NCBI GenBank assembly: GCA_964393895.1
Contig: CAYMWP010000003.1
Span: 18,351 to 82,350 of the forward strand
DNA length: 64,000 nt
From: an uncultured Anaerolineales bacterium
GTDB taxonomy: Bacteria; Chloroflexota; Anaerolineae; B4-G1
Direction: 5' to 3'
This document shows positions 26,373 to 43,029 of the stretch, in pieces. The position numbers were made by a program, and so were the translations under genes. The notes below the pieces were generated by a model. That model saw only the letters and a list, made by a program, of their open reading frames with translations, made no database searches and was not told the DNA's origin. How positions within the stretch are numbered: position 1 is the first letter of the stretch; each line of letters opens with the position of its first letter.

Positions 26373-26479
26373 TGCTCTGTCCTCGGCTGGGGGTGGCAGA
26401 CGGTAGACAGGGGAAGACAATTCCCAGTCTCGAGAGAAAAGGCCGGGGTATTCTCTGTTTACCGTCTGCCGTTCGCGGT

Positions 26480-26533: not shown

Positions 26534-26564
26534 AGCTTTGACCTCCGTAGATTAATAGAGTTCC

Positions 26565-27350: not shown

Positions 27351-27359
27351 AATTTCCCC

Positions 27360-28139
27360 CTATCCTTGTGGCTCGGCCTGGAGTTCTTGCTCGGCGTGGG
27401 CTTCTAGTTCTTCCGGCAGCGGGAAGCCGCGATTCACCAGCGCCTCTTCCAGGGCGCGGATGATCGTCTCAAAGACCTTGACCCGCGCCCAGCGGTAGTT
27501 GGTCGCCTCCACGATCGTCCACGGGCCCCACTCGGTTTCGGTACGCTCCAGCATCTCCTCGACGGCGAGCAGGTATTCGTCGTATTTGCGGTGATGCTCC
27601 CAGTCCTCCGGTTGGACGTGCCAGCTCTCGAGCGGATCTTTTTCCAATTTCTTAAAGCGCTTTTTCTGTTCTTTCTTGCTGATGTGCAGCCAGAACTTTA
27701 TAATGACGTAACCATCGTCGGCGATGGTGCGCTCAAAATTCACAATGTCCCGATAGGCCTTGCGCCACTTTTCCTCGGGCGTAAAACCCTCCACCCGCTC
27801 GACCACCACGCGGCCATACCAACTGCGGTCGAAAATGGCCATCTCGCCATAGTTGGGCAGCTTTTGCCAAAAGCGCCACAGCCAGGGCATGTGCGTCTCG
27901 AACGTGCGCGGGGCCTGGATGGGGTAGAGCTTGAAGCCACGCGGCTCGAGTCTCTGGGTAAGCGCCTTGATGGACGTTCCCTTGCCGGCCGCGTCCCAGC
28001 CTTCAAAGACGATGATGCTGGGAATGTTGGCATCCCAGCACGCCTTTTGTAGGTCGTACAGCCGGGAGCGCAGACCGGGCATCACTTCTTTGTACTGCTT
28101 CTTTTTCAGCTTTTTGGTCAAGTCTACTTTTTCTAACAC
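27360..28139 (-). CDS. Polyphosphate kinase 2 family protein (second tandem copy)
   Basis: 259 aa. Motifs IVFEGWDAAGKGTSIKAL and DRSWYGRVVVERVEGF. Paralogous to the adjacent gene. Confidence 0.9.
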   Translation of the reverse strand: MLEKVDLTKKLKKKQYKEVMPGLRSRLYDLQKACWDANIPSIIVFEGWDAAGKGTSIKALTQRLEPRGFKLYPIQAPRTFETHMPWLWRFWQKLPNYGEMAIFDRSWYGRVVVERVEGFTPEEKWRKAYRDIVNFERTIADDGYVIIKFWLHISKKEQKKRFKKLEKDPLESWHVQPEDWEHHRKYDEYLLAVEEMLERTETEWGPWTIVEATNYRWARVKVFETIIRALEEALVNRGFPLPEELEAHAEQELQAEPQG

Positions 28140-28159
28140 TTTTCGCCTCCCCCGATTGA

Positions 28160-28190
28160 GACCCTGGGGGTTTCAGAAAACCCTAGAGTC
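28160..28190. repeat. Palindromic element copy (imperfect)
   Basis: GACCCTGGGGGTTTCAGAAAACCCTAGAGTC lies between PPK2 and adk. The adk stop codon lies inside it. Confidence 0.75.
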
Positions 28191-28851
28191 TGTTTACAAC
28201 AGCACGCAGTTCGGCCTGCACTGTCTCTATGGATTGGTCGCCATTGACCTCGACCAGCACACCCTGGTCTCGATAGTAATCAATCAGCGGGCTGGTCTGT
28301 TCCCAATAGACTTGGAGTCGCTTACGAACTGTCTCTGGTTTGTCGTCGTCGCGCTGGTACAGCTCGCCCCCGTCTCTATCACACACCCCTTCCTCTCGGG
28401 ATGGGTTGAACTGGACGTGGTAGGATTCACCACACGTACGGCAGATGCGGCGTCCACTCACCCGCTCGACCAGCACCTCGTCTGGCACGGCGATGTTGGG
28501 TACCAGCTTGATCCTGTGCCCCTGGGCGGCCAGCGCCTCGTCGAGCGCCTCCGCCTGAGCGATGGTGCGGGGGAAGCCATCCAGCAGCGCGCCGCCGGCG
28601 CAATCCGGCCGGCTCAGGCGATCCATGACCATAGCTATGGTGATGTCGTCGGGCACCAGTTCGCCGCGATCCATGTACTTTTTGGCCTCTAGGCCTAATT
28701 CGGTCTCGCCCTTGAGGTTCTCCCGGAATAGATCGCCGCTGGCGACGTGGGGCAGGTCGAGCGCCTGGCGCAATTGGGCCGCCTGAGTCCCCTTGCCCGA
28801 GGCCGGCGGGCCGAGAAGAACGATGAACGTAGGCTCTTTTGCCATAATCAC
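28183..28851 (-). CDS. adk: Adenylate kinase with a Zn-ribbon lid
   Basis: LLGPPASGKGTQAAQL, GDLFRE, and a lid with RRICRTCGESYH...CDRDGG. Confidence 0.95.
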   Translation of the reverse strand: MIMAKEPTFIVLLGPPASGKGTQAAQLRQALDLPHVASGDLFRENLKGETELGLEAKKYMDRGELVPDDITIAMVMDRLSRPDCAGGALLDGFPRTIAQAEALDEALAAQGHRIKLVPNIAVPDEVLVERVSGRRICRTCGESYHVQFNPSREEGVCDRDGGELYQRDDDKPETVRKRLQVYWEQTSPLIDYYRDQGVLVEVNGDQSIETVQAELRAVVNRL

Positions 28852-28882
28852 ACCTCCATTGGGGTTATGTCTTGGAATGTAA

Positions 28883-30796
28883 TCACGATGGCGTCGCTGC
28901 CAATGCCACCGTGCGACTAAAATCGGCGCTATGAAAGTACGCCCAGGCCCGGGGGAAGGTGTCCAACAGATGTTGGATCTCGGATTGCCGGGCTGCCAGA
29001 TAAGCGGCTACGCCGGGCGCTACGATCGTCTCTGTGGGCGAGGTGGTCGCATTGCTGCCGGCCTGGGTGTGGCCCCACGTACCCCAGGTCAAAAAATCGC
29101 GCAGCAGATTACTGGCCACCACCGCATCCTGGAGATCCCCCAGGTGATCTTGCAGCCCCTTTATCTCTTTGATCACCCCCTTGGTTTCGGGCGCCAGTAC
29201 CTCCTCGAAGAATTCGAGCGTGTAGCGCAACCGCTTGGCAGCGATGCGGAGCAGATGCAATCGCTCTAACGGAACGTCGGACTTGGTCACCCACTCGTCA
29301 TAAGCCAGGAAAGCGGCCAATCGCTGGTACACGGCCACCGGCGCGACGTGCCGCAGTCGGTGGGGCAATGGCTCGCCTTTCTCCGAGAGTACAGGGAGCG
29401 CCGCATTGCCCGGATTCTCCAATAACTCGGCGAACCGCTTTTTGAACTGGGCGTAGCGATCGCTATCCAGGTAGGCCAGCATCTTTTCTCTGGCCTTTTC
29501 CCGCTCCGTTTCCCAGGCCGCCCGCAGCGGAGATAGATCGCTCTCCTGTTCTGGAGGCAACGTATCCAGGTAGCGTTCGGTTTTTTCCCAGAACACGTCC
29601 AGGTCTCGCACATTCCCCAGTGCCCGGCCGGTGCGTCGCAAGTCCTTGAGGGTTGGCCTCAACTGCTTCATATCCAGATGATGACCAAACACCCGGAAGG
29701 CGGCCCGCATCCGCCGGGTGGCTACCCGCATGTCGTGCAGTTCTTCGATGTCCTCGCCCAGCCGGGTGCCCGGCTCGTGGTACAGCATGTGCTGGAAGTG
29801 GAAGTGGAACGTCTTGCGCGCTGCCTCGGCCATCGAGTCGTTCGCTTTTAGCCCTGGCTCTTTGGGTGGTTTTTTGAGCTTGGGAGTTGGACGAACCGGA
29901 CGCGCGACCGGAGGGCGGGCTGGTTCTTTTGATTCTGTGGGGAGGGGATCTGGGGCAACTGGCCCAGTCTTGTCCAGGGCGGCGCCGGAAAAGATGTCCA
30001 GTCGTTCTCGCTGAAAAGCCGCCAGCCAACGCCGCACCGTGCGCGCCGATCTCTGAGCCTGCTCGCCGGCCTCCGCCTGCGTCGCTCCCCCGTCCAGCGC
30101 CAGGAGCGCGCGTGCCCGGAGACCATCCAGATCGTCCCGTCCGGCCACCTGCTGGCAGATAGCGCGCTCCTGAGGCGTCAGCAACCGCTCTTCCAGGAAG
30201 GCCAGCGCCCGCTCGAACTTGGAGCGAGGCTCAGGCTCCAGTCCCCATTCCTCCTGCAGGCAGGCCACGATCGTCGCCAACTCTTCCTCGCTCCCTTGGG
30301 CCGCCAACTCTACCTCCAGCTCCAGATAGGTTTGCTCGGCTCCCTCGCTGGTCAGGCGCACGTCGTCCAGGCTCAACTCGGCCATCGTTTGCCGGCCCCG
30401 TTTCACCTGGCGCACGCTTCGTGTCTGTTGGAGGGAGAAAAGCGGCCGGAGTGGAGCCTGCCCGATCAATGCGAGTACCCGTTCACGCACGGGGCCGGCG
30501 GGCCACTCGGTGGGCGGCGCGGCGGCGGGCAGCAGTATCTCTAACTCCTCCCGCCGGTGGACGGCGCCCTCGGCTCCTCCCAGACCCTTGAGGGTGATCA
30601 GTATCCCTCCCTCCTGTTCTCGCTGGCGGCAGGCGTAACCGGCGGCCAGGATCGGCCGGTCAGCCGCGTCCAGGTAGGTATCGCGCACCTGTTTGACCTG
30701 GCGCGCCGCGAGCGCGAACCCGGCCAGGCGGTCGGCCGCCTGCAAGCGTTGGAAGATTCCCATCGTGGGGACAACGAACTTGGCTTCGATTTCCAT
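28883..30796 (-). CDS. CYTH (triphosphate tunnel) - HTH-like insert - CHAD domain protein
   Basis: N-terminal MEIEAKFVV CYTH start. A central HTH-like stretch (GGATQAEAGEQAQRSARTVRRWLAAF) and a Pro/Lys-rich linker. C-terminal CHAD (LHDMRVATRRMRAAFRVFG ... LHLLRIAAKRLRYTLEFF). Confidence 0.85.
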   Translation of the reverse strand: MEIEAKFVVPTMGIFQRLQAADRLAGFALAARQVKQVRDTYLDAADRPILAAGYACRQREQEGGILITLKGLGGAEGAVHRREELEILLPAAAPPTEWPAGPVRERVLALIGQAPLRPLFSLQQTRSVRQVKRGRQTMAELSLDDVRLTSEGAEQTYLELEVELAAQGSEEELATIVACLQEEWGLEPEPRSKFERALAFLEERLLTPQERAICQQVAGRDDLDGLRARALLALDGGATQAEAGEQAQRSARTVRRWLAAFQRERLDIFSGAALDKTGPVAPDPLPTESKEPARPPVARPVRPTPKLKKPPKEPGLKANDSMAEAARKTFHFHFQHMLYHEPGTRLGEDIEELHDMRVATRRMRAAFRVFGHHLDMKQLRPTLKDLRRTGRALGNVRDLDVFWEKTERYLDTLPPEQESDLSPLRAAWETEREKAREKMLAYLDSDRYAQFKKRFAELLENPGNAALPVLSEKGEPLPHRLRHVAPVAVYQRLAAFLAYDEWVTKSDVPLERLHLLRIAAKRLRYTLEFFEEVLAPETKGVIKEIKGLQDHLGDLQDAVVASNLLRDFLTWGTWGHTQAGSNATTSPTETIVAPGVAAYLAARQSEIQHLLDTFPRAWAYFHSADFSRTVALAATPS

Positions 30797-30951: not shown

Positions 30952-31176
30952 TTAGCAAAGTTGGCTTGGGGCGTATTCTAACGCCCTGTAGCGTGCTGCT
31001 AACTTTATCCAATCGTGTAGCTCCCAGCCCGGCGGCTCTTCCAGGTACCCGGCGATTTCTTCGGTGACTATCACGACCTCGCCGGTTTCCAGGTCTAGAT
31101 AGCACTGCATCTCCCAGGAACTGTTTTGGAAAGCGCTCTCTAGCTCTATCCAGTCAATCTCGAGTTTGCGGGTCAT
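30952..31176 (-). CDS. Small acidic protein, possibly UPF0158-like
   Basis: 74 aa ORF overlapping the recQ stop by 23 nt. The family assignment rests on weak recollection only. Confidence 0.4.
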   Translation of the reverse strand: MTRKLEIDWIELESAFQNSSWEMQCYLDLETGEVVIVTEEIAGYLEEPPGWELHDWIKLAARYRALEYAPSQLC

Positions 31177-34100
31177 TCGCCCCTTCTTCCTGGCGCTCGT
31201 GCACCAATTCGATCAATTCTGCTCCATACCGCTCCAGCTTGCGCGGGCCGACTCCCTTCAACTCAGCCAGAGCCTCCAGCGTGACAGGCCGGTGCGCGGC
31301 GATGGCCCTCAGGTGGCTATCGTGAAAGATGACGTAGGGCGCGACCTTTTGCGCGCGAGCCTGCTCCAGCCGCCAGGCGCGCAACTTTTGGAACAGCGCT
31401 TCGTCCACGTCCGGCCCTGCGCTCTCTTCTGGGGATGGTTTGCGTGACTGCGGCTCCCTCACCGGAGCGACCAGGCTATCCAACGCGGCCGGGTCTTGCA
31501 GCGCCGCCCGGCCTGCGGGGGCGAGCTCGAGCACATCGCCGCCGTGATAGAGCCGCCGCGCTTGCAGGAACTCGCCGCTTTCCAGGAGGCCCAGCATGCG
31601 CTCGACGGCCGCCGCCGAGCGAAAGGCCAGCTTTCCGAAACAGGCGTTCTCACGGGCTTTTTCCTTGAGGGGCTGCCTACCGTGACGCGCCTCATCGTCG
31701 CCGCGCAGGATGCGGGCCAGCGTGAGCCGTCCCCAGCTCCATTCCGCGTCCGCCACGCAGCGCAGAACGGTCAGCAGTTGCTCCCGCTCGCCGGGCAGGC
31801 CGGTGTCCGGCGGTGGCTGAATCTCGACGCAGTTATCACAGGCGTCGCAACGCTCGATGGCGCGCCCGCCCAGGTAAGAGTTGATGTAGCCGTGACGGCA
31901 GCGACGGGTGCGGGCGTAAGCCGTGATCTCGTCCACCCGCTGGGCCTGCACCGTCTCATACCGCTCCAGCAGCGTCTCGACCCGTTCGGCGGCGTCTGCG
32001 GGCGGCGGCGGCAGCTCCAGCAGCCAGTCCCGCCCGGCCGGGTAATAGTTCAGCCAGCCCGCGTCGGCCCACTCCAACATCCGCCGCTCCACGCCGTCGA
32101 GGGGCAGGTCGGCCCGCCGCGCCACGTCCGCCAGGTCGAGCGTCAGGGATTGGTCGGGCCGCAGGTGGGCGGCCTGGCGGAAGGCGTCAAACTCGTCTGG
32201 CAGGATACTGGCGATCTGTAGGGTCGTATCTTGCCTGACGGCGGCTGTCAGGCGGACGGTCCCGCTGCGGGGAAAATCGGGGCCGCGCCGTAGTAGACCT
32301 GCCTCCTCCAGCAAGCTCAGAGCGACCCGGATGCGCGTTCTGTCGGTTCGCAGGTCGCGCTCCAGGTTCGCCGCCACGATCCGGCCGGACGAGTGCTCAC
32401 CCAAACGGCGCTTGACGGCCCCGTAGACGGCCCGCAGGAACTCGACCGGCAGCGCGTCCCGGCGGATGCGACGGGACAGCACAGCTCGGTCCGACAGGGC
32501 GTACATCAACAGGCAGCGGGCGGGCAACCCATCGCGCCCGGCCCGTCCGGCCTCCTGGTAGTACGCTTCCAGCGAGTTGGCGGGGACAAAGTGAACGATG
32601 AAGCGAATGTCGGCCTTGTCAATGCCCAGGCCAAAAGCGATGGTCGCCACGACGACGCGGATGCGGCCGGCCATAAAGTCATCCTGCACCTCGGCCCGGT
32701 TGGAGATGCCGGCGTGGTAGTGACCGGCGTTGACGCCGTGAGAGCGCAGCAGCGCGGCCAGTTCCTCGCAGCGGGCGCGGGCGCCGGCGTAGATGATGCC
32801 GCTGCCCGGTTCGCTTTTGCAGAAGGACAGCAGGTGACGCAGTTTATCGTCGCTGGCGCGGGCGTAAAAGACCTCCAGTTGCAGGTTGGGGCGGGTCACG
32901 TCGCCGGCGACGACGCGCATGTTGCCCAGGTGGCGGATGATGTCGCGCCGCACGCGGGGCGGGGCGGTCGCCGTCATCGCCAGGAGCGGCGGGTTGCCCA
33001 GCGCCTGCCGCGCTCGCCCGATGGTGAGATAGTCGGGCCGAAAGTCGTGGCCCCACACACTGACGCAGTGGGCCTCGTCAATCACCAGCCGGTTGACGCC
33101 CGCCCGTCGCAGCGCGTGCAGAAAGGGGGGCTGGCGCAGCCGCTCCGGGGCGGCATAGAGCAGGCGGTAGCCGCCGTCGGTGACTTGCCCCAGCCGGGTG
33201 CGCAGCGCGTCCCGTTCCAGGCTGCTGTTGATGGTGGCGGCCCGGCCCCGCACCCCGGCCGGCAGCGAGTCCACCTGATCCTTCATCAGCGCGATGAGGG
33301 GCGAGATGACGAGCGTCGTGCCGCGCTCGGCCAGCAGGGCGGGGAGTTGGTAGCACAACGATTTGCCGCCGCCGGTCGGCAGGACGGTCAGCACGTCCTC
33401 GCCGCGCAGGACGCTGGCGATGGTCTCCAACTGGCCGGGCAGGAGGCTCTCGAAACCAAAGAGCCGCCGGATGGCTTCTGTGATGCGCTCCCGCTCCGCG
33501 TCGGAGACGGGGATTTGGTCAAAGGTGGGGAGGGGTTCGGTGGGTGGGGGTCCCTCCTCCTCCACGGGGCGCGGCGCAGGAGGCGGGCGGTAGTCCGGGG
33601 ACAGGGCGGCCCGCAGTTCGGCCAGTTCATCGGCGTGGCGGCGGGATAGCTCCGCCTCCAGGTCGGCGATGCGAGTCTCCTCGCCGCTGGCCCGAAAGTG
33701 ATCGCGCAACCGGCGCAGGTAGACGGCGGAGAGGGGGCTTTCGTCGGTCGCGGTACGCAGCAAGCGCACGGCGTAGCCGCTGGCCGTAATCCAGTCGTCG
33801 AGCAAGCGGTAGAGCGCGGCCATTCCCAGCAGATAGGCGCGGCTCTGAGGGCGCAGTTCGTTCAGGCGACGGTAGGCGGCCAGCGCGGCGTCGGTATCTC
33901 CCCGCTCCAGCTCGACCTCGCCCAGCAGTCCCCAGGCAGTCACGCTCTCTGGTTGTTCCCTGACCAAGTCGCGGGCGATCCGGTGGGCGGCATCCGAGTC
34001 GGTCCGGGCCAGGTGGACGCGGGCCAGCAGTGCGCGAGCGGTCATGGATGTCCTGATCTGCAACCGCTTTTCCATCACCATCAGCGCGTCGTCGGGCCGC

Positions 34101-34333
34101 TCCTGGGCCAGGAAGGCGCGCGCCCGCAGGTCTAGCAGCGAGACCAGGGAGGGGCGGGCCGGGATGAGCACGTCCAGGCAAGCGTGCAGGGTCTCCAGTT
34201 GCTCCCAGCGCAGGAGAAAGTTGAGCAGCCGGCTGCGCTCGCTGCCCGTCAGCCCGACCATCTGTCGCGGGGCTATCGCCAACTCGGCCAGCACGTCGCC
34301 ATTCGCAGATTCGCTATTCGTAAATTCGTTCAT
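31154..34333 (-). CDS. recQ: RecQ-family DNA helicase with an N-terminal TPR region and a C-terminal HRDC domain
   Basis: LPGQLETIASVLRGEDVLTVLPTGGGKSLCYQLPAL, DEAHCVSVWGHDFRPDY, YYQEAGRAGRDG, the Zn motif CRHGYINSYLGG...CDACDNC, and an HRDC-like C-terminus (LFQKLRAWRLEQA...). The N-terminal 290 aa or so are TPR-like. Confidence 0.9.
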   Translation of the reverse strand: MNEFTNSESANGDVLAELAIAPRQMVGLTGSERSRLLNFLLRWEQLETLHACLDVLIPARPSLVSLLDLRARAFLAQERPDDALMVMEKRLQIRTSMTARALLARVHLARTDSDAAHRIARDLVREQPESVTAWGLLGEVELERGDTDAALAAYRRLNELRPQSRAYLLGMAALYRLLDDWITASGYAVRLLRTATDESPLSAVYLRRLRDHFRASGEETRIADLEAELSRRHADELAELRAALSPDYRPPPAPRPVEEEGPPPTEPLPTFDQIPVSDAERERITEAIRRLFGFESLLPGQLETIASVLRGEDVLTVLPTGGGKSLCYQLPALLAERGTTLVISPLIALMKDQVDSLPAGVRGRAATINSSLERDALRTRLGQVTDGGYRLLYAAPERLRQPPFLHALRRAGVNRLVIDEAHCVSVWGHDFRPDYLTIGRARQALGNPPLLAMTATAPPRVRRDIIRHLGNMRVVAGDVTRPNLQLEVFYARASDDKLRHLLSFCKSEPGSGIIYAGARARCEELAALLRSHGVNAGHYHAGISNRAEVQDDFMAGRIRVVVATIAFGLGIDKADIRFIVHFVPANSLEAYYQEAGRAGRDGLPARCLLMYALSDRAVLSRRIRRDALPVEFLRAVYGAVKRRLGEHSSGRIVAANLERDLRTDRTRIRVALSLLEEAGLLRRGPDFPRSGTVRLTAAVRQDTTLQIASILPDEFDAFRQAAHLRPDQSLTLDLADVARRADLPLDGVERRMLEWADAGWLNYYPAGRDWLLELPPPPADAAERVETLLERYETVQAQRVDEITAYARTRRCRHGYINSYLGGRAIERCDACDNCVEIQPPPDTGLPGEREQLLTVLRCVADAEWSWGRLTLARILRGDDEARHGRQPLKEKARENACFGKLAFRSAAAVERMLGLLESGEFLQARRLYHGGDVLELAPAGRAALQDPAALDSLVAPVREPQSRKPSPEESAGPDVDEALFQKLRAWRLEQARAQKVAPYVIFHDSHLRAIAAHRPVTLEALAELKGVGPRKLERYGAELIELVHERQEEGANDPQTRD

Positions 34334-34337
34334 TCGC

Positions 34338-35048
34338 TCATTCGCTCCCGTAATCTGGTATCACGTGCACTCCGACGACGAGGGGCCAATACTCGCCCCG
34401 CCACTTGCGCCCCAGCCCCAGCGCCAGGTAGAGGGCCTCGGTCTCCAGGCGTTCGAAGAGTTCATCGTGCTCCAATGTCAGGTGGCCGCCTCTTGCGCCC
34501 AGCCAGGCCCGGCCCAGTGATTCCCATTTCAGGTCGGTGACGGTGATGCCGCGCTTGCCGGCGGCGCGGTGGCGGTTGTCCTCGCCCGCCAGCAGAAAGC
34601 CCATCCGCGCTTCGTACTTGCCAGAGTAGGCGTCCAGCGAGAAGTTGGCCCAGACGCGCTCCGGCTGCACCAGGCAGAGCGAGCGGGTGTGGTGGACAAG
34701 CACTTCCTCCGGGGCGCGGTCGAGATAGCGGGGGAAGAAACTGGCGCGCTTTTTCCCTTCCAGGCGGCGCAGCAGGCGCGGCCGGTGATGCACAAAGTCG
34801 GTGAGCCAGTCCTCGACGTGGGGTGGGTTGGGACGCGGCTCGATTAGATTCAGCTCGATCACGTCGCCGCACTGCACCAGCCGGCCATCGGCGTCGGTCA
34901 TGTCGCCCGGTTGGATGGTGTCAAAGTCGCGGATCGGGCGCACCCAGCGCAGGCCGGTCACCGGGTCGGGGTCGGTGGTGAAACCGGCGGTGCAGATGCC
35001 GCTGAGCATTTTGGTCATTGCCAGGATGAGGACTGGTTTAGGTGGCAT
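34338..35048 (-). CDS. Uncharacterised protein, possibly of the dual-OB-fold type
   Basis: Start moved to ATG 35048 (MPPKPVLILAMTKMLSGICTAGF...), because the longer ORF N-terminus is Pro/Arg-rich junk. It lies 4 nt from the recQ start. The family call is tentative. Confidence 0.5.
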   Translation of the reverse strand: MPPKPVLILAMTKMLSGICTAGFTTDPDPVTGLRWVRPIRDFDTIQPGDMTDADGRLVQCGDVIELNLIEPRPNPPHVEDWLTDFVHHRPRLLRRLEGKKRASFFPRYLDRAPEEVLVHHTRSLCLVQPERVWANFSLDAYSGKYEARMGFLLAGEDNRHRAAGKRGITVTDLKWESLGRAWLGARGGHLTLEHDELFERLETEALYLALGLGRKWRGEYWPLVVGVHVIPDYGSE

Positions 35049-35083
35049 GGCTAGAACACGGATTGCAGGACGGTAACGGATTC

Positions 35084-35524
35084 TTACAGATGCGCGACGG
35101 TCAGCGCCGGCAGGTGCTTGGTCCAGTATTCGGCCACCAGGCGGCGGTGGCAGTGGTCGGCGGTCGGCTCGGCGCAGAGGAGACACGGGGCGCGGCGGCG
35201 GGCCAGGATGTCGCGCCCTATTTCCTCGGCGGACCGTTTCTTTAACAGCTGGAGGAAGCCGGTCACATAAGCGGCCCAATCCTCGTCCTCGCGGTAGGCG
35301 TCGAGGATCTCGGGCGTGGGGGACAGTTCGGGATGGTGCTCGTAGGCGATGTGGAACCCCTCGCGCAGCAGGAAATCCAGCGTGTCCCGCTTGGTGTAGC
35401 CGGCCAGGTGGGAGGTGTTGCGCAACCGCACGTCAATCACCGCGTCCACGCCGGCCCGGCGCAGTTGATTGATGAACTTTTCCAGGGGTTTCTCTTTGTA
35501 ACCGATGGTGTAGATGGTTGGCAT
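35084..35524 (-). CDS. DUF488 family protein
   Basis: MPTIYTIGYKEKPLEKFINQLRRAGVDAVIDVR... and CLLCAEPTADHCHRRLVAEY, the typical DUF488 layout. Start at ATG 35524. Confidence 0.8.
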   Translation of the reverse strand: MPTIYTIGYKEKPLEKFINQLRRAGVDAVIDVRLRNTSHLAGYTKRDTLDFLLREGFHIAYEHHPELSPTPEILDAYREDEDWAAYVTGFLQLLKKRSAEEIGRDILARRRAPCLLCAEPTADHCHRRLVAEYWTKHLPALTVAHL

Positions 35525-35570
35525 AGCTGTCTCCTGGGCAAGCACGGGCTGCAAGTTTGCAAGTCGCGAG

Positions 35571-36077
35571 TTAGAAGAGGGAGAGTTGTTGGGCGATGGG
35601 TTCTCCCTCGATTTTCGCACCGTCGGGCTGGATGTGAAGCACGCGCACCCCGCGCGCCAGCAGGGTTTGGCTGATCAGCAGATGGCGGTGGCATTGACGG
35701 TGATCGCCCTCGCTGCACATGACGGCTACTCGCTCGGTGCGGGCCAGTTCGAGCAACCGGTCAATGCCGGCCTGGTATTCGTCGCTCTGCTCCACGCGCC
35801 GGTAGTCGGGGCGCTCCTGGCCGGGATCGTACAGGATCGGGTCGGACGGCCGTCCGCCGAGCGCGTCACCCATAAAGCGGTAGGCTATGCCGGCCTCTTC
35901 CAGGTCGCGGCCCAGCGTCTCCCGGTTGAACTGGTGTGTCCAACGGCTGTAGGGCTGACTGCGCACATCGGCCACGAGGGTTACCTCGTGCTGGCGCAAC
36001 AGATCAATAAAGGCCATCGTGTCGTGGTCGCTGTGGCCGATGGTGTAGACGAGTAGGTTGTTGCTCGGTTGTTCCAT
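35571..36077 (-). CDS. DUF488 family protein (second tandem copy)
   Basis: LVYTIGHSDHDTMAFIDLLRQHEVTLVADVRSQP... and VMCSEGDHRQCHRHLLIS. Confidence 0.8.
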   Translation of the reverse strand: MEQPSNNLLVYTIGHSDHDTMAFIDLLRQHEVTLVADVRSQPYSRWTHQFNRETLGRDLEEAGIAYRFMGDALGGRPSDPILYDPGQERPDYRRVEQSDEYQAGIDRLLELARTERVAVMCSEGDHRQCHRHLLISQTLLARGVRVLHIQPDGAKIEGEPIAQQLSLF

Positions 36078-36095
36078 TCGCGTCCTTGATGCTGC

Positions 36096-36251
36096 TCAGG
36101 TTTCTTGCTGCGCCAGGTGCTTTTGATAAGCTTTCCATCCCGGGCACCATTTGATGTGCCAGTGCCAGAATCGGCCAAACAGCGATTTGGGACTGGCTTC
36201 CGCTCTTTTGCGCATAGGACAATCCTCGCAGCGGATCTGGCTTTTGCTCAT
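36096..36251 (-). CDS. Cys/Trp-rich miniprotein (51 aa) of unknown function
   Basis: ATG 36251 is preceded by GAGGAGG. Translation MSKSQIRCEDCPMRKRAEASPKSLFGRFWHWHIKWCPGWKAYQKHLAQQET carries paired CxxC-like and CPGW motifs. Confidence 0.55.
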   Translation of the reverse strand: MSKSQIRCEDCPMRKRAEASPKSLFGRFWHWHIKWCPGWKAYQKHLAQQET

Positions 36252-36267
36252 GACGGTTCCTCCTCTT

Positions 36268-36909
36268 TCAAATCGTTGGATCACGCGGTTCCAGTGCGGC
36301 TACTCCGGCGATGAACTTGCGTTTTCCTCCGTGAGATGGATGTCTGATGTAGGGAGCCGGCCGGCCGATCTTGGCCAGCGCCCGCTCCGCCACGCGCCCG
36401 ACGGCGTAGGGTCGCGCCGACGGGAACAGGGCCAGGAAGCAACGCAGCACTTTTAGCCCGTCGCCTAAATCCTGACCTGGGGCGCGGTTGGAGAGCGGGC
36501 CTTGCTCGCCGAACGGGTGCCAGGGAAAGGCGTTCCACAATATGCAGTCCGCCCGTTCGCTCAAAGGCTGCCACACGATCTTGGCCGAACGCTCGACCCA
36601 CAGGCTTGCCGCCGTGCTGCTGCGGGCCAGGTCTTGACCCCGCGTCCAGTTCAATCGCTCCGGGCCGACCAGTTGCGCTTCGCAGGTGAACGGAATGCCG
36701 GAAAAGCGGCAACCGGCGTAGCCGGCTCCCTCGCCTACCAGCACGTAGCGCGCGCCGGAGAATATCTCCAGGTAACGGCGTAGGTTGCGGCGGCGTATCT
36801 CTGCCCCGTTAGGGACATCCAGTTCGTGATCAACGTCGCGGTACTGGTTGAACGCCCTGGGGTTGCTGTAGGCGTTCAGTAGCCCAAATAGCTCATCACT
36901 GTCAGTCAC
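36268..36909 (-). CDS. Uracil-DNA glycosylase superfamily protein (non-canonical family)
   Basis: VLVGEGAGYAGCRFSGIPFT matches the UDG-superfamily motif A region. HPSHGG lies near the C-terminus. ATGA overlap with the recJ stop. Confidence 0.75.
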   Translation of the reverse strand: MTDSDELFGLLNAYSNPRAFNQYRDVDHELDVPNGAEIRRRNLRRYLEIFSGARYVLVGEGAGYAGCRFSGIPFTCEAQLVGPERLNWTRGQDLARSSTAASLWVERSAKIVWQPLSERADCILWNAFPWHPFGEQGPLSNRAPGQDLGDGLKVLRCFLALFPSARPYAVGRVAERALAKIGRPAPYIRHPSHGGKRKFIAGVAALEPRDPTI

Positions 36910-39233
36910 GATGTTATCAACGTCTCCTTGGCGGCGCGGGCAAAGTGAGCGCGGTAGGCGGCTGTCTCTCTCAGCAGTTTCTCCAAGCGAGCGGCCGCTT
37001 GGTTCAGCCCTGCGCCTGATTTCTGGTCGCCGATCGTCAGATGTGCCTCGTCGTCTGTGCCTTGAGCCTTCAGGATCCCCTTGGCCTCCAGCCAGGCTAA
37101 CCCGGCCCGCACGGTCGCCTCTCGCTGAGCGGTGGCCGCCGCCAGGGTGGAGATGCTGACCCGGCCTCGATTGGCGTTAAGCGCACGTTTGGTCAGTCCG
37201 AGCAACCGTTTCAGGAACGCCTCGAAATCGTCCAGCCCCGGCTCTGTACCAAAGAGATAGATCGTCTCCGGCGAGACCTTGTCCAGCGCGGCCTGCAATT
37301 CTTTGGGGCCGGGGGGCGTGGTCCAGATGGCGAGAGCTTGTGATGGCTCTAGCTCTCGCCTATCGCGACCCGCGACTTGCGCTCTGGCCTCCGCTTCGCT
37401 CCACACTTGCACTTGCTTCTGCTCTCGCAACTGTTCCAGCAACGTATGCGGGTGAGATTCTTGCCTATAGTCCACCACCTGCAACCTGCGACCGGAGATT
37501 GGGGGATGGAGATCGGGGATGGGAGATCTGACGCGGGCATCTACCCACACCACCTGCACCTCTCGCTGACCGCGATAGTCGCTGGCCTGCACGGCGTAGG
37601 CCAGATCGAACTGACCCTGCGGCAACGAGGACTCGTCCCCCCGCCACCAGAGCACTTTTTGCGTCGCGCCAGCCTCGTCCTCCACGACCAGCCGCAGATG
37701 CTCGCCGGTACGGCCTATGGTGGTGTGGCTTTCCAGCCTCAGCCCCTTGCTCGCCAGAGTCAGCGCGGGATTGCCCGGCCCGAAAGGAGCCAGCCGCTCC
37801 AACTGCTCCACCAGGTCGAGTGACAGGTCGGAGAGCGGCAGGTAGCCATCTATGGGGAGTGTGTTAGACCCCAAGGGTCTCAGAAGACCCTTGGGGTCTC
37901 TCGTTAGCGCGCGACTGAATTCGGGGATGCGCTCTGGCTCGATGCTCAACCCGGCCGCCATTGGATGGCCGCCGAAACGGACCAGCATCTCGCGCTGGGC
38001 GGCTATGGCGGCGTGAATGTCACAGCCTGGGATGGAACGAGCTGATCCCCGGCCCAGCTTGCCGGGAGGGGTGGCGATGAGGATCGTGGGGCGGTTGTAC
38101 TGCTCGGCCAAGCGCCCGGCCACGATGCCGATGACGCCAGCCGGCCAATCGGGATGGCTCAGCACCAGCGCCTTGTACTCCAGCAATGAGGGATCGCGCT
38201 CGATCTGCGTCTGTGCTCCTTGAAGGACCTGATCGCATAGCAGCTTGCGCTGGGCGTTCAACCCGTCCATCTCGGCGGCCAGGATACGGGCGCGGGCCAG
38301 GTCGGCGGTGGTCAGAAACTCGACGGCAATGGTGGCGTCGGCCAACCGGGCCAGGGCGTTGAGGCGGGGAGCCAATGCAAAGCCGATGTGCTCCTCAGTG
38401 AGCCGCTCAGGGTTGAGACCGGCGGCCTCTATCATTGCCTGGAGGCCCAACCGCTCGGTGTGACGCAACGCCTCCAGGCCGCGTTGGAGCAGGTGGCGGG
38501 TGTCGCCGGTTTGGGTCGCCACGTCGGCCACGATGCCCAGGGCCACCAGATCGAGGTATTGTGCTGCCTCTTCCGCTCGGCTCGCTCGCTCGTACAGGGC
38601 CTCGGCCAGTTTGTAGGCCACGCCCACTCCCGGAAGTTCGCGCAATGGATGGGTTTCTGGCAGCAGTTTGGGATTGACCACAGCGTGGGCTTCCGGCAGG
38701 GTCGGGGGCAGATCGTGATGGTCGGTGACGATCACGTCCACGCCCTGCGAGCGGGCGTAGGCAATCGCTGCGTGGGCGGTGACGCCGGTATCGCAGGTCA
38801 GCACCAGTTGCACCCCCTCGGCGATGAGCCGTTCCAGTATGGGAGTGTGAAGCCCGTGCCCCCCTTCCTCACGGTTGGGGATGTAGTAGGTGACGGCCGT
38901 GCCCTGCGGCGAGCCTCGTCGAGCCACCAGCTCCCGCAGTGTGGAGACCAGGATAGTCGTCGCCGTCTGGCCGTCCACGTCAAAGTCGCCCCAAACGCAG
39001 ATCGCCTCGCCCTGGCGGATGGCGCGCTCCAATCGCTCTGCGGCTCGAACCAGGTGCGGCAGTTCGGCCGGCGGGGTGGGCTGATAGCGGGCGGGGTCGA
39101 GGAAGGCGCGGGCCGTTTCCACGTCGGTGAACCCGCGTCGGGCCAGTGTCTCTGCCACCAGCGGGTGCCCGCCGACGGCAGAGCGCAGCGCGTCAGGTAC
39201 TCGCACTTTCTGTGGTTCGATCCAATCTTTCAC
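36906..39233 (-). CDS. recJ: Single-stranded-DNA-specific exonuclease RecJ
   Basis: DHH motifs (WGDFDVDGQTATTIL, TCDTG, VIVTDHH) and DHHA1 (FGGHPMAAGLSI), plus a long C-terminal extension. Confidence 0.9.
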   Translation of the reverse strand: MKDWIEPQKVRVPDALRSAVGGHPLVAETLARRGFTDVETARAFLDPARYQPTPPAELPHLVRAAERLERAIRQGEAICVWGDFDVDGQTATTILVSTLRELVARRGSPQGTAVTYYIPNREEGGHGLHTPILERLIAEGVQLVLTCDTGVTAHAAIAYARSQGVDVIVTDHHDLPPTLPEAHAVVNPKLLPETHPLRELPGVGVAYKLAEALYERASRAEEAAQYLDLVALGIVADVATQTGDTRHLLQRGLEALRHTERLGLQAMIEAAGLNPERLTEEHIGFALAPRLNALARLADATIAVEFLTTADLARARILAAEMDGLNAQRKLLCDQVLQGAQTQIERDPSLLEYKALVLSHPDWPAGVIGIVAGRLAEQYNRPTILIATPPGKLGRGSARSIPGCDIHAAIAAQREMLVRFGGHPMAAGLSIEPERIPEFSRALTRDPKGLLRPLGSNTLPIDGYLPLSDLSLDLVEQLERLAPFGPGNPALTLASKGLRLESHTTIGRTGEHLRLVVEDEAGATQKVLWWRGDESSLPQGQFDLAYAVQASDYRGQREVQVVWVDARVRSPIPDLHPPISGRRLQVVDYRQESHPHTLLEQLREQKQVQVWSEAEARAQVAGRDRRELEPSQALAIWTTPPGPKELQAALDKVSPETIYLFGTEPGLDDFEAFLKRLLGLTKRALNANRGRVSISTLAAATAQREATVRAGLAWLEAKGILKAQGTDDEAHLTIGDQKSGAGLNQAAARLEKLLRETAAYRAHFARAAKETLITS
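37866..37897. repeat. Palindromic element copy inside the recJ coding sequence
   Basis: GACCCCAAGGGTC tcagaa GACCCTTGGGGTC has perfect 13-bp arms. It is read in frame as DPKGLLRPLGS. Confidence 0.85.
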
Positions 39234-39236: not shown

Positions 39237-40088
39237 TCAGTACTCGATCTCTGCGATCTGCTCAAAGTCAAGCGATATGTCGAAATCTTGGGTCAATTCG
39301 TCCTCCATCTTGTCCAACGGGCCGGCCTCGACCCCGCGCTGGCACAGCGAGCGGTAGCGGCAGTAGCGGCAGTTCCGCTCGTCGGACGTGCGCGGGTAGG
39401 GAGGATCGCCGATCTGCCCTACGAGCGAGGTCAGGTAAGCCTCGTCCGCCTTGTACTGGGCCGCGCTGTAGGGGAAGCGGGCGGGATCGTCTGGAAAGTT
39501 GGCGAACCAGTAGACCATCTCCACCTGTTCGGGCGCGAGCGGCTGCCCGCCGTTGAGGTGGTCGCCCGCCAGCACCAGCAGGTAGGGGTAGACCTTGGTC
39601 TGCAACCGCTCGGCCAGGTATTTGCGCTTGGGTCGTCTGCGGGACGTCTTCCAGTCCAGGATGACGGCCCGGCGCCCAGGGTCTACTGTGACGAGGTCGT
39701 ACTTGGCGACCAGGCGGTAGTCGCCCAGCGGCGCGGACAGGACGATCTCTGGATGGCGAGACGCGGGTAGATTCTCTGGCCCGTGCGTCAAATAGTTGTG
39801 CCACCAGCGGCGCAGGTCGGCGTCGGTTGCGGCGCACGCGAGTTGTTCTTCTGGGATGCCCAGCAGGTGTTGGTGCATCAGGCGGTGGAAGGCGGCTCCT
39901 TGCTGCATGTGGCGCTCGTTTTCCAGGGCGGGTTGCGCCTCGTGGGCGGGCCAGTCCACGTGCTCCACGTAGCCGAGTTGGAAGCGGCGCGGGCAGTCGG
40001 CGTAATCCTGGAGGCTGGCCTGATTGTATGAAGTAGGGAGTAGGGAGTAGGGAGTAGGGGGAGTGGAGGGAGTAGGTGTTGTTGTCAT
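39237..40088 (-). CDS. PD-(D/E)XK (Cas4/AddB-like) nuclease with a C-terminal Cys cluster
   Basis: Start at ATG 40088 (MTTTPTPS...). YADCPRRFQL at the N-terminus, DLV...ILDWKT in the core, and CRYCRYRSLC at the C-terminus, typical of Fe-S PD-(D/E)XK nucleases. Confidence 0.8.
   Translation of the reverse strand: MTTTPTPSTPPTPYSLLPTSYNQASLQDYADCPRRFQLGYVEHVDWPAHEAQPALENERHMQQGAAFHRLMHQHLLGIPEEQLACAATDADLRRWWHNYLTHGPENLPASRHPEIVLSAPLGDYRLVAKYDLVTVDPGRRAVILDWKTSRRRPKRKYLAERLQTKVYPYLLVLAGDHLNGGQPLAPEQVEMVYWFANFPDDPARFPYSAAQYKADEAYLTSLVGQIGDPPYPRTSDERNCRYCRYRSLCQRGVEAGPLDKMEDELTQDFDISLDFEQIAEIEY
40032..40059. repeat. Tandem heptamer array (AGTAGGG x4)
   Basis: Four perfect AGTAGGG units, followed by degenerate units up to about 40077. 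They encode the nuclease N-terminus on the minus strand. Confidence 0.9.
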
Positions 40089-40540
40089 TGGCGGCGCTCC
40101 GTGCTGGCGACGAGGCCGTTGAGCAGGCGGCCTACTGTCTCTGATTGGGCCATCAAATCGGTATAGGATGGAATGTATTTCAGGTCTTGGGATGACTTTC
40201 CTGAAAAAAGGTGTTGGTTTGTTCGTCGGTGGGGATAAAATGCCCAAAAACCAGGTTTTTTGGTGAGATATTCCCACAAACACGTCAATTTTGAGCCAAA
40301 AGTGGGACGCTGTCCCATAAAACCATTGAAAAACCTGGTTTTTTCAGTGGGGTCTTGGGATAGGATGAAAAAGTATTCTAGCTCTTCCAGAGAGCCTTCC
40401 GAGATGTTGTAGAAGCGGATCTTGTCTCGAACCCCGCGTCGTTTGAACCCCTCGGCGATGTTGGCCGGTACTGAGACCGCCGCCCGTTTATGAGCTTCCT
40501 GCCACGTCTCTAGTTGTCGAAAATGCGAGATCTTCCCCAT
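40085..40540 (-). CDS. Four-helix-bundle protein (23S rRNA intervening-sequence protein family), apparently decayed
   Basis: RAAVSVPANIAEGFKRR...GSLEELEYFFILSQD...VGRLLNGLV matches the family. About 28 aa are missing after WQEAHK, and 56 unrelated codons are inserted. The ORF is still open. Confidence 0.55.
   Translation of the reverse strand: MGKISHFRQLETWQEAHKRAAVSVPANIAEGFKRRGVRDKIRFYNISEGSLEELEYFFILSQDPTEKTRFFNGFMGQRPTFGSKLTCLWEYLTKKPGFWAFYPHRRTNQHLFSGKSSQDLKYIPSYTDLMAQSETVGRLLNGLVASTERRQ
40194..40350. mobile_element. MITE-like 157-bp insertion flanked by an 11-bp direct repeat
   Basis: GGTCTTGGGAT occurs at 40183-40193 and 40351-40361. The insert carries the palindromes AAAAACCAGGTTTTT and AAAAACCTGGTTTTT, and its ends are CTGAAAAAA and TTTTTTCAG. 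Confidence 0.45.
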
Positions 40541-40545
40541 ACTCT

Positions 40546-40566
40546 CTACTCCTTACTCCCTACCCC
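40546..40566. repeat. Tandem heptamer array (TACTCCY x3), inverted relative to 40032-40059
   Basis: TACTCCT TACTCCC TACCCCC, the reverse complement of the permuted AGTAGGG unit. It encodes the helicase C-terminus and stop. Confidence 0.8.
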
Positions 40567-42819
40567 CTCTTCCTCCCAGAACGTCTGCAAAGCAATGAAC
40601 GGCGCTGCCGGCTGCTGGTCGCCGCGCCGGCCGGTGTTCCAGGTGACGATCAGTTCCTTCTTGGCGCGCGTGATGCCCACGTAGAGCAGGCGCAGCCGCT
40701 CGGCGGCGTATTCCTGCCGCGCCTCCTGGGTCACTTGGCGCTCCTGGTATTCGTACACGGGCAGGTCGCCCTCGGCCAGGACCGCCTCCAACTGGGCCAG
40801 GGCCTCCGCCTCCAGGTTTATCCGCTCGCGCACGAACCATTTCTCCGAGATGAACTGGTCGTGGGGGCGGGCGGAGGGAAAGTTATAGTTGTTGACCGAC
40901 ATCAGGTAGACCCGGTCCCATTCCAGCCCCTTGGCCTTGTGGATGGTGGCGATCACGACCTTGCCCTTGTGCCTTTCGGGGTCAAAGCCTCTGTCGTCGG
41001 CGCTCAGCCCCAGGAAGCGGCGCTCGTTGCGGGCCACGACCGCCAGTTCCTCGACCAGCTCCGGCAGTCGCCAATCGGGATGGCTGGCGCTCATGCGCCG
41101 CAGGACGCCGGCCAGTTTGTGAGCCACGGCCAGGTCGGCCGGTTCCTCGAACAGGTCTTGGGCCAACGTGAGGATCAGTTGATCCACCGGCAGCAGGGTG
41201 CCCCCCTGCCAGCGCCGAATCAATACGCGGAACTCGGCCAGTTGCTCGTGGATCCTTCGGCCATACTCAGGACAGGTATTGGGGAACTCGGCGGCCATCT
41301 CCAGCCCGGCCAGCCAGTCCCGATCCACCTGGGGCCACACGAAATCCTCCACCCGCCGACATTTGCTCAACCTCCTGGCAATCCACTCGAGTTGTTCCCT
41401 GGTCTCTTTGTCCTCGCGGTCGTCTCGCCGCCACACTTTGTAGGCGGTCGCCAGTTTACTGGGGGAGGCGGGGTCGGCCAGGTACTTGAGGACATTGCCC
41501 AGAGCGCCGGCCGTCTCGCGGGTCTCTCGCGTGCTGCGCAGGAGCTCGACGTATTCCAGGCCGCGTCTCTTCAACTCGGCCGCCAGCTCAAAGCCGCGAT
41601 TGTTGCGCGGCACGAGCACGGCCACCGTCTGGTCGGGGCGGTCTGGCAGCCAGCTTGATAGGGAATCGGCCACGGCCCGCAGCTCTTCCTGGGGTGTGAA
41701 CTTTTGAGCGACGATGCGCACTTTGTCGGGGTCGTCGGGCGGGTTGGGCTGGGGGTCGCCGGGCGGGGCCGGCTCGATGTGCGGTGGGGTGAGCGCCTCC
41801 CGCACTGCCTCCACCGGGTGCCGGGTTTGCGTCCAGTCAATGAGATAGTTGGCCAGCGCGATGATGCTGCGGGTGGAGCGGCCAGAGTTGGGCAACTCGC
41901 GGGCTTCCACCTCCTCCTCTTCCAGGAAGGTGCGCAGGTATTTCGGATCGGCGGTGGTAAAGGTCTCATAGATGGCCTGGTTGGGGTCGCCGACGCGCAC
42001 CCAGTTGCCGCCTGGCCCGCAGAGGAGGCGCAGGATTTGCTCCTGCAGGCGGCTGCTATCCTGGGCCTCGTCCTCCAGGATAAAGGGCCATTGGTGCTGC
42101 AAGCGTTCCAGCAGGTCACGGTCCATCTCCAGGGCTTGCAGCGCCAGGCGGATCAGGTCGTCGAAATCCACCGCGCCGCGATAGCGCAGCGCGCGCTGGT
42201 AGTCGGCATAGATGGCGGCTCCCATCTCGACCAACGGGAACGAGGGCGAGCGTCGTTCCAGGCGGCCCTGGATTTTATCCGGCGTGCCCTCCAGGTCCTT
42301 GGCCCGCTTGATAAAGCTGCGGGCGACGCCGGTCACCAGGTCGGGCCACTGACCGCGGCGCACCCAGTTCTGTTTTCCCTCTTCCAGGTCTGGCGATATG
42401 AACTCGTCGGCGACGTGAGGGTTGGCCCGCAGCCAGGCGGCCGCCGCCTCCTGTAGGATCCCGTCCGCCTCCCGCTCGTCCACGATCTGGAAATCGTCCG
42501 CGAGGCCGACCAGCGCCGGCCGCTCGCGGACGATGTCGTGGGCCAGGCCGTGCAGTGTGCGCACCCGGTAGCCCAGGTTGGGCAGCAGCCCGCGCTCCTG
42601 GACAAAGGCGGCCACGCGGCCGGCGAAATTATCCACGGCCGAGTTGACCAGCGTCACGACCAACACTTCTTGATCGTCCGCGAGCCGTCCGCTGGCGACG
42701 ATTTGCGCGGCCAGGGCGGAAAGCGTGAGCGTCTTGCCGCTGCCGGGCACGGCCGCGACGCCCATCTTGCCGCCGATATAGTCGAGAACTTGCTGCTGTT
42801 TGGGTCGTGGTTTAAACAT
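40546..42819 (-). CDS. UvrD/PcrA/AddA-like superfamily 1 DNA helicase
   Basis: Walker A AVPGSGKTLTLSA, FILEDEAQDSS, VIATIHKAKGLEWDRVYL and LLYVGITRAKKEL. Confidence 0.9.
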   Translation of the reverse strand: MFKPRPKQQQVLDYIGGKMGVAAVPGSGKTLTLSALAAQIVASGRLADDQEVLVVTLVNSAVDNFAGRVAAFVQERGLLPNLGYRVRTLHGLAHDIVRERPALVGLADDFQIVDEREADGILQEAAAAWLRANPHVADEFISPDLEEGKQNWVRRGQWPDLVTGVARSFIKRAKDLEGTPDKIQGRLERRSPSFPLVEMGAAIYADYQRALRYRGAVDFDDLIRLALQALEMDRDLLERLQHQWPFILEDEAQDSSRLQEQILRLLCGPGGNWVRVGDPNQAIYETFTTADPKYLRTFLEEEEVEARELPNSGRSTRSIIALANYLIDWTQTRHPVEAVREALTPPHIEPAPPGDPQPNPPDDPDKVRIVAQKFTPQEELRAVADSLSSWLPDRPDQTVAVLVPRNNRGFELAAELKRRGLEYVELLRSTRETRETAGALGNVLKYLADPASPSKLATAYKVWRRDDREDKETREQLEWIARRLSKCRRVEDFVWPQVDRDWLAGLEMAAEFPNTCPEYGRRIHEQLAEFRVLIRRWQGGTLLPVDQLILTLAQDLFEEPADLAVAHKLAGVLRRMSASHPDWRLPELVEELAVVARNERRFLGLSADDRGFDPERHKGKVVIATIHKAKGLEWDRVYLMSVNNYNFPSARPHDQFISEKWFVRERINLEAEALAQLEAVLAEGDLPVYEYQERQVTQEARQEYAAERLRLLYVGITRAKKELIVTWNTGRRGDQQPAAPFIALQTFWEEEGVGSKE

Positions 42820-42829
42820 TGTTCCTCAA

Positions 42830-42857
42830 ACGTAAGACGTAAAACGTGAAACGTAAT
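42830..42857. repeat. Tandem degenerate heptamer array (ACGTRAN x4)
   Basis: ACGTAAG ACGTAAA ACGTGAA ACGTAAT, immediately upstream of the helicase start at 42819. Confidence 0.85.
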
Positions 42858-43000
42858 GATTGGGGTGTGTTTCAAACGAGTTGTGGATTGGGTGGCATAG
42901 CCCCTCGTGGGCACCTTATAGGCCATTTAACGGGCACAAGGCCCTACACTACAACCGAAATGAAACACGCCCTAATGATTTTCGGGCCACTCTCTTGCGC

Positions 43001-43029
43001 ATTACGTATTACGCATTACGCAATTACGT
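43001..43029. repeat. Tandem degenerate heptamer array (ATTACGY x4), inverted relative to 42830-42857
   Basis: ATTACGT ATTACGC ATTACGC AATTACGT, overlapping the 3' end of the upstream helicase gene. Confidence 0.85.

Follow-up and report, generated by a model that had tools for sequence, protein, structure and literature searches.

Between recJ and recQ, on a 64,000-nucleotide stretch of the genome of an uncultured Anaerolineales bacterium (contig CAYMWP010000003.1, positions 18,351 to 82,350 of the forward strand; the whole stretch is referred to below as the window), lie five small genes that encode a protein resembling uracil-DNA glycosylases (UDGs; hereafter the UDG-like protein), a 51-aa protein, two proteins of the DUF488 family (DUF488A and DUF488B), and a 236-aa protein of the DuOB family. 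A first-pass annotation of the sequence had read these genes as a core of five poorly characterised genes with recQ and recJ as its boundaries. We found that the conserved unit is a cassette of four genes coding for DUF488A, DUF488B, DuOB, and a TPR-RecQ-HRDC helicase, which is kept across Chloroflexi, and that the gene adjacency of the region is a local juxtaposition of three independent units (Table 1). The five open reading frames (ORFs) themselves were all confirmed, in position as well as in strand (minus), and since their products are conserved in other genomes they are real genes and not chance ORFs.

The genes of the region are on the same strand and are separated by gaps of 4–46 nt or overlap. 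The UDG-like ORF runs from a GTG start at 36909 to a TGA stop at 36268, and its start shares a 4-nt GTGA overlap with the recJ stop codon (TGA, 36908-36906), as had been noticed previously; judging by this overlap, the gene is translationally coupled to recJ in the window. The 51-aa ORF (ATG 36251, TGA 36096) is preceded, 8 nt 5' of its start codon, by the strong Shine-Dalgarno sequence AAGAGGAGG, and its product contains CEDCP and WCPGW (CxxC...WCPGW), all of which agrees with the earlier description. DUF488B most likely starts at ATG 35524 and ends at TAA 35084. The 236-aa ORF extends from ATG 35048 to TGA 34338, and the recQ start codon (ATG 34333) follows 4 nt past its stop, as annotated; its N-terminus is MPPKPVLILAMTKMLSGICTAGF, and the string that had been cited as its beginning starts only at residue 7. 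A promoter and terminator scan inside the region returned nothing informative and no convincing internal terminator. Given the small gaps and the lack of an internal terminator, the UDG-like, 51-aa, and cassette genes may be co-transcribed in this genome.

Table 1. Features of the recJ–recQ region, in window coordinates.
Feature	Coordinates	Strand	Length	Remark
UDG-like gene	36268..36909	minus	213 aa	SMUG1-like fold (predicted); outside cassette
51-aa gene	36096..36251	minus		small conserved gene at junction of two blocks, in neither
DUF488A (DUF488 #1)	35571..36077	minus	168 aa	cassette gene 1
QLSLF pentapeptide, DUF488A residues 164-168	35574..35588	minus		candidate beta sliding-clamp-binding motif
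DUF488B (DUF488 #2)	35084..35524	minus	146 aa	cassette gene 2
DuOB (236-aa protein)	34338..35048	minus		cassette gene 3
TPR-RecQ-(insert)-Zn-RQC-HRDC helicase	31154..34333	minus	1059 aa	cassette gene 4
74-aa ORF overlapping recQ 3' end by 23 nt	30952..31176	minus	74 aa	possible lineage-specific gene 5
recJ (context)	36906..39233	minus		TIGR00644 503 bits, cut-off 396.9

Our sample of the cassette comprised 80 loci from different species-representative genomes, nearly all of them Anaerolineae or Thermoflexia, whose DuOB orthologues are 56–80% identical to that of the window (loci carry our own L numbers); gene order was counted over those loci whose contig leaves room for the neighbour. DUF488A and DUF488B were found directly upstream of DuOB, in the same order and on the same strand, in 61 of 66 loci, and a TPR-RecQ gene directly downstream of DuOB in 58 of 60, with most intergenic gaps shorter than ~100 nt; the DUF488 pair was present in 71 of the 80 DuOB loci. 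Genes for RecJ, UvrD, the PD-(D/E)XK nuclease, the UDG-like protein, or the 51-aa protein were found within 10 kb of DuOB in none of the 80 loci. The proposed five-gene core does not hold on this evidence: the UDG-like, 51-aa, and recJ genes drop out of it, recQ is a member rather than a boundary, and the co-occurrence with UDG-like genes, which the first-pass annotation had singled out for checking, was zero within 10 kb of DuOB in these 80 loci. Unrelated gene neighbourhoods in other genomes were observed for the UDG-like gene (four of seven contexts) and for the 51-aa gene. More distant versions of the first three genes, with DuOB proteins 23–30% identical to the window DuOB, occur in the same order in four metagenomic loci (L094-L097). 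The 74-aa ORF at the recQ 3' end has a homologue following RecQ in six of the closest loci (L007, L016, L027, L029, L031, and L032) and gave no family match in domain-library scans; it is possibly a lineage-specific fifth gene of the cassette. The gap between DUF488B and DuOB is a hot spot for insertions (L016, L021, L024, L026, L031, L034, L037, L038, L052, L075, L077, and L087), the inserts being small selfish or toxin-antitoxin (TA)-like genes of PIN/VapC-like, nucleotidyltransferase/HEPN-like, DUF3800-like, or GxxExxY-like type.

Both DUF488 proteins passed the gathering threshold of Pfam PF04343 (DUF488; 22.2 bits), DUF488A with 87.9 bits (1e-24) and DUF488B with 73.9 bits (2e-20), and the two are ~30% identical to each other, confirming that they are paralogues. 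Against PF22751 (DUF488-N3a, the "active N3 subclade"; gathering threshold 27 bits), DUF488B scored above the threshold (41.8 bits, 1.5e-10) and DUF488A below it (25.2 bits). The DUF488 motif reads MCSEGDHRQCHRH in DUF488A and LLCAEPTADHCHRR in DUF488B. Upon alignment the paralogues share G14, D37, R39, S44, Y66, P77, Y92, C121, E123, C129-H130-R131, and H148, and C-x-E...C-H-R is thus carried by both copies, each of which looks active by its residues. The retention of this invariant set in both copies suggests a two-subunit enzyme rather than an enzyme with a dead partner. In the PHROGs collection the DUF488 domains matched families of unknown function only, and the earlier statement that DUF488 has no assigned biochemical function still holds in the literature. 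A relationship between DUF488 and the UDG-like protein was considered and rejected (hhalign probability 0.2%). A representative search also returned a 206-aa protein (P0284) that joins a DUF488A-like stretch of ~45 N-terminal residues (YSIGHSDH...VDVRSQPYSRW) to the C-terminal half of DuOB and that arose either as a deletion chimera or through faulty assembly.

QL[SD]LF is the consensus for binding to the beta sliding clamp and stands at the C-terminus of clamp clients such as PolC, Pol II/IV, MutS, and others. The C-terminus of DUF488A (residues 164-168 of 168) is QLSLF, identical to this client motif and placed, as in those proteins, at the extreme end after a linker, here of variable sequence and flexible. 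We observed Q[LM]x[LMFI][FLWM] within the last 12 residues in 69 of 70 DUF488A orthologues, with QL[S/T]LF as the form at the extreme C-terminus, and all four distant triads keep the tail as QLSLF, QLPLF, QLMLF, or QLALF. DUF488B has no C-terminal tail and the motif was found in none of 73 DUF488B proteins, nor in any other protein of the window. The same loci yielded 929 crude ORFs, of which 34 carried the tail motif, and all 34 were DUF488A (0 of ~895 others). The PolC C-terminus is one place where QLSLF serves as the canonical beta-clamp-binding motif (PMC12309361), and the DUF488A tail is probably a clamp-binding motif as well. Unlike the established clients, DUF488A is neither a polymerase nor a mismatch-repair protein; it is a small domain with no assigned activity and a predicted binder.

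The 236-aa protein matched the whole profile (1-210/210) of Pfam PF22557 (DuOB, "dual OB-containing domain"; gathering threshold 27 bits) with 62.6 bits (7e-17) and is a member of a catalogued family. DuOB is a rare family, with 762 homologues and 191 representative clusters among 1.84e9 proteins, in which E79, S123, and D172 are invariant and W35, R37, and P38 nearly so (47 diverse members aligned). The AlphaFold2 (AF2) model was poor and beta-rich (mean pLDDT 56; N-terminal half < 50), and with a model of this quality its Foldseek matches, to ATP-grasp and Ig domains, were discarded as meaningless. No DuOB match was found in plasmid and viral searches. Three proteins in which DuOB is fused to RecQ domains were recovered. 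In P0277, the TPR domain is replaced by DuOB, and the helicase part aligns collinearly with that of the window RecQ (41% identity over 286-1049, its unusual insert at 626-790 included). In P0415, DuOB is joined to a RecQ of canonical type (787 bits against TIGR01389, above cut-off), and P0386 is a DuOB-RQC-HRDC fusion. That DuOB has been fused twice independently, each time to another RecQ subtype, is strong evidence that it works physically with RecQ.

The window RecQ consists of an N-terminal TPR region, a complete helicase core, an insert of ~165 aa before the Zn-binding motif, and then RQC and HRDC domains. DEAD, Helicase_C, RecQ_Zn_bind, and HRDC scored above their Pfam cut-offs, with further matches to TPR_16, TPR_19, and RQC, and the protein exceeded the cut-off of TIGR00614 (recQ_fam; 361 bits, cut-off 219.8). 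The motifs LPTGGGKS, VIDEAHC (the DEAH box), and CRH...CDACDNC (the Zn-binding Cys cluster) are all present. Against the canonical equivalog TIGR01389 it reached 504.7 bits in two stretches, below the 640.2 cut-off. Alignments with its orthologues begin at residues 2-15, indicating that the TPR region is conserved. The insert (residues ~626-790, about 31964-32458), between Helicase_C and the Zn-binding motif, matches no family; it is common to the P0277 fusion, and canonical RecQ is without it. In L008 (11203-12216) the cassette RecQ carries a fused DUF559 (Vsr-like endonuclease) domain at its N-terminus, and in 7 of the 80 loci (L013, L018, L020, L024, L030, L031, and L033) the domain occurs at the same position, between DuOB and RecQ, fused to the helicase or as an insertion just ahead of it.

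We propose, with a probability of roughly 0.55, that the cassette is a clamp-tethered, RecQ-coupled DNA-processing module, and that in this lineage it serves chromosomal maintenance rather than being a mobile immune island. RecQ, with its helicase and Zn motifs intact, would unwind forked, gapped, or otherwise abnormal DNA. DuOB would be its dedicated OB-fold partner, either holding the displaced single strand or docking on the RecQ N-terminal TPR domain. The two DUF488 proteins, most likely as a heterodimer, would be the catalytic effector acting on the exposed nucleic acid, and the QLSLF tail of DUF488A may tether this effector to DNA-loaded beta sliding clamps at replication forks or repair gaps. 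For the chemistry we offer a guess, drawn from the Cys/His/Glu/Arg constellation, namely that a lesion, adduct, or end is hydrolysed with the help of a metal or a thiol. What speaks for a DNA role is the linkage to RecQ, the fusion of DuOB with RecQ, and the clamp-type tail, and the substrate would be DNA rather than RNA. A nucleic-acid-related role had also been suggested in the first-pass annotation; this part can stay, on those three grounds, and the adjacent glycosylase-like and recJ genes on which the suggestion was partly built are not its basis. The reading of the cassette as a housekeeping module draws on its neighbours and on the lack of plasmid and viral copies: in the window it is surrounded by genes for polyphosphate metabolism, signalling, and repair, in L006/L008 by genes for ValRS, sigma-70, and fatty-acid metabolism, and in L095 by those for ThiG and XdhC, with ThiG following the triad.

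Several observations weigh against this proposal. The predicted clamp binding stands on a motif of five residues and the presumed OB fold of DuOB on a Pfam name. Profile and structure searches, which placed the UDG-like protein (Foldseek) and the 236-aa protein (Pfam), gave no PDB match to the DUF488 profile by sequence or profile search, and in the literature on DUF488, DuOB, PDC-M45, and YeaO we found no mechanistic paper and no biochemical or structural evidence for an activity of DUF488 or DuOB. Five loci (L020, L028, L059, L071, and L089) carry DuOB without DUF488 in the fetched flanks; RecQ lies directly downstream of DuOB in three of them (L020, L028, and L059) and ~5 kb downstream in L089, indicating that the DuOB-RecQ pair can persist without the DUF488 pair (in L071 the contig ends and the position of RecQ is not assessable). 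A triad from a distant lineage (L095) has no RecQ. Taken with the DUF488-less loci, it means that the four proteins are not strictly obligate partners. TA-like ORFs are inserted inside the cassette in ~12 of 73 loci, and in flank-synteny clustering any one flanking gene family was common to at most 9 of the 80 loci, a result that at such divergence is uninformative as to vertical or horizontal inheritance. Finally, the triad is catalogued by PADLOC as a defence candidate, PDC-M45.

This last point leads to the main rival explanation, which we consider unlikely but deserving of serious attention, namely that the cassette is an immune system against phages or other mobile elements, in which the helicase and the OB protein sense foreign or replicating DNA, the DUF488 pair is the effector, and the tail could target the replicating DNA of an invader. 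PDC-M45 is a three-gene candidate, one of 145 that were picked because they sit inside BREX, DISARM, or type I restriction-modification (RM) loci in RefSeq (Payne et al., bioRxiv 10.1101/2024.01.29.577857). PADLOC assigns DuOB to PDC-M45A, DUF488A to PDC-M45B, and DUF488B to PDC-M45C, which are contiguous in the window, and its hidden Markov models (HMMs) matched with 1.5e-9, 7e-54, and 3.5e-44, respectively. Location within such loci is what defines the PDC systems, and PDC-M45 has a tally of 68 in the cassette list of that paper; by its authors' own label, however, it is a candidate only. RecQ-like helicases are known in defence systems, and the DpdF and PsyrT HMMs match the window RecQ, although such matches are expected for any RecQ. 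DUF488 has been reported near prophages and defence islands, TA-, HEPN-, and DUF3800-like genes are the ones that have entered the cassette, its genomic location varies, and the RecQ-less triad of L095 fits the three-gene definition of PDC-M45. Against these points, the neighbours in the window, L006, L007, L008, and L095 are housekeeping genes and not defence genes, no copies of the cassette were found on viral contigs or plasmids, and orthologues that are 56–80% identical across 80 species of one class, in a fixed architecture, look vertically inherited.

A second alternative, which we regard as improbable, concerns the tail: QLSLF would be a ligand of the RecQ N-terminal TPR domain and not a clamp motif, and the module would be clamp-independent. 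TPR domains commonly bind C-terminal peptides, the TPR repeats of RecQ are conserved in its orthologues, and the tail is at the extreme C-terminus. Distant triads in which no RecQ was found (in L095, none across a locus of ~11 kb, ~6.7 kb upstream and 2.2 kb downstream) nevertheless conserve the tail just as well, and its sequence matches the clamp consensus exactly. Since RecQ-less triads keep the tail, binding to the TPR domain is disfavoured as its role and we retain the clamp as the more probable target.

The UDG-like protein gave no sequence match in Pfam, NCBIfam, or the PDB, even with a 27-sequence profile, and the window protein did not match Pfam PF03167 at E up to 10; among the matches listed, ~20 of 120 homologues carry a precomputed PF03167 match. 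It has > 2300 homologues, nearly all in Chloroflexota. The AF2 model (pLDDT 80.6), when searched with Foldseek, returned SMUG1 in all of the top 15 PDB matches (best 5h93, 9gk0, and 1oe4, from Geobacter, human, and Xenopus; E ~1e-6, TM 0.54-0.65), followed by another UDG (5gn2) and UdgX, and in BFVD viral UDGs came out on top. Almost every position of GE(G/A)AGY...SGIPFT, LWNAFPWHP, and YIRHPSHGG is invariant in 27 homologues, including the HPS residues H190, P191, and S192; these segments resemble the family 4 motif A, Asn strand, and motif B. Motif A (the water-activating loop), GE(G/A)AGY without Pro, is atypical, and the model is weak there (pLDDT < 50 at 62-66; GEGAGYAGCRFSGIPFT represents residues 59-75). 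The protein shares its alpha/beta fold with family 3 UDGs (SMUG1; TM up to 0.65) and has a family-4-like GE(A/G)xG...G-x-PF motif as well as an HPS motif B, and it differs from both families in the Pro-less motif A, its own N-terminal FNQY motif, and the absence of an Fe-S cysteine pattern. On the modelled structure it has the UDG-superfamily fold, closest to SMUG1, and the glycosylase-like call made from the sequence was right at the level of fold; any glycosylase activity is putative. Together the UDG-like proteins form a new, sequence-orphan, Chloroflexi-wide clade of the UDG superfamily.

The UDG-like gene follows recJ in three of seven contexts (the window, L003/L004, and L092) and stands among unrelated genes without RecJ upstream in the others (L001/2, L005, L093, and L098). 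In L092, the locus of the closest relative (80% identity), the gene overlaps recJ by the same 4 nt, the next genes code for YjbQ and RF-1, and the cassette is missing. The gene is thus the tail of a UvrD-PD(D/E)XK-RecJ block or free-standing, and is no member of the cassette. That block is visible in the window at 39237-45127 (minus strand), where recJ is preceded by genes for a 703-aa protein resembling helicases, a UvrD-like helicase, and a PD-(D/E)XK nuclease of Cas4-like type; the nuclease gene and recJ are closely spaced, and ~260 nt lie between UvrD and the nuclease; the order UvrD-PD(D/E)XK-RecJ-UDGl recurs in L003/L004 (L003 1331-9919). These genes may constitute an end-resection system of the AddAB/AdnAB type that is coupled to RecJ. 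In base-excision repair, RecJ is able to remove 5'-dRP, and the occasional coupling of the UDG-like gene to recJ is of interest in itself, separately from the cassette. The 51-aa protein, for its part, has 32 homologue clusters (52–84% identity, one labelled Anaerolineales by its source); its gene was not found in L003 or L092 either, and its three sampled contexts elsewhere (L009-L011) are unrelated to DNA metabolism. It is a real and conserved gene that is independent of both neighbouring blocks. The idea that the five genes between recJ and recQ are one functional core, for example an extended base-excision pathway, is hardly tenable: the shared strand, the tight spacing without an internal terminator, and the genuine UDG fold would suit it, but the absence of the UDG-like, RecJ, and 51-aa genes around all 80 DuOB loci, the arrangement in L092, the unrelated genes around the 51-aa homologues, and the lack of relationship between the DUF488 and UDG-like profiles speak against it.

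On the recQ side of the region, at 22787-30796 (minus strand), lies a polyphosphate cluster that encodes a metallophosphoesterase/Ppx-HD protein, PPK1, two PPK2 proteins, an adenylate kinase, and a CYTH-HTH-CHAD protein. Further on, 319-21385 (plus strand) is a run of very large multi-GAF/PAS signalling proteins, among them a 2187-aa hybrid histidine kinase with eight GAF domains (11806-18369) and a 1333-aa GAF/PAS protein (7768-11769).

In comparison with known systems, the DUF488-DUF488-DuOB triad is not new, having been listed by PADLOC as PDC-M45, which consists of the same three adjacent protein families as in the window, in the same order as in L094-L097. The Chloroflexi cassette differs from PDC-M45 in adding a near-constant TPR-RecQ (58/60) and in having flanks that are not defence genes (in the window, RecJ/UvrD repair, polyphosphate, and signalling genes), and the M45A HMM covers only the N-terminal third of the window DuOB (profile 5-87/230). 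What we add is the RecQ linkage, the DuOB-RecQ fusions in two RecQ subtypes, the conserved tail, and the Vsr-like nuclease additions. RecQ helicases with OB-fold partners are familiar from E. coli RecQ-SSB and eukaryotic BLM-RMI1/RMI2, and the cassette likewise couples a RecQ-family helicase to an OB protein, here in a pairing strong enough for gene fusion. It differs from these in that DuOB, whose OB fold is given by its Pfam name, has no detected sequence similarity to SSB or RMI, and in the addition of two DUF488 proteins; topoisomerase III, as in BLM-RMI, was not noted among the called genes of the examined loci, although no systematic search was made for it. Going one step further, we suggest tentatively, as a speculation that is somewhat unlikely to be right in full, that DUF488A/B represent a new class of clamp-tethered DNA-processing enzymes and that together with DuOB (and RecQ in Chloroflexi) they form a pathway of replication-coupled repair or surveillance that had not been recognised before.

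DUF488 is a large, prokaryote-wide family for whose E. coli member, YeaO, we found no functional literature, and DuOB is known only as a Pfam entry. The evidence gathered here gives a concrete hypothesis, namely that the clamp is bound, that the proteins form a complex, and that they act on forked or gapped DNA, and the cassette bears on whether PDC-M45 acts in immunity or in genome maintenance. If the clamp-tethered pathway is true, it would provide the first mechanistic foothold for the DUF488 family, E. coli YeaO included.

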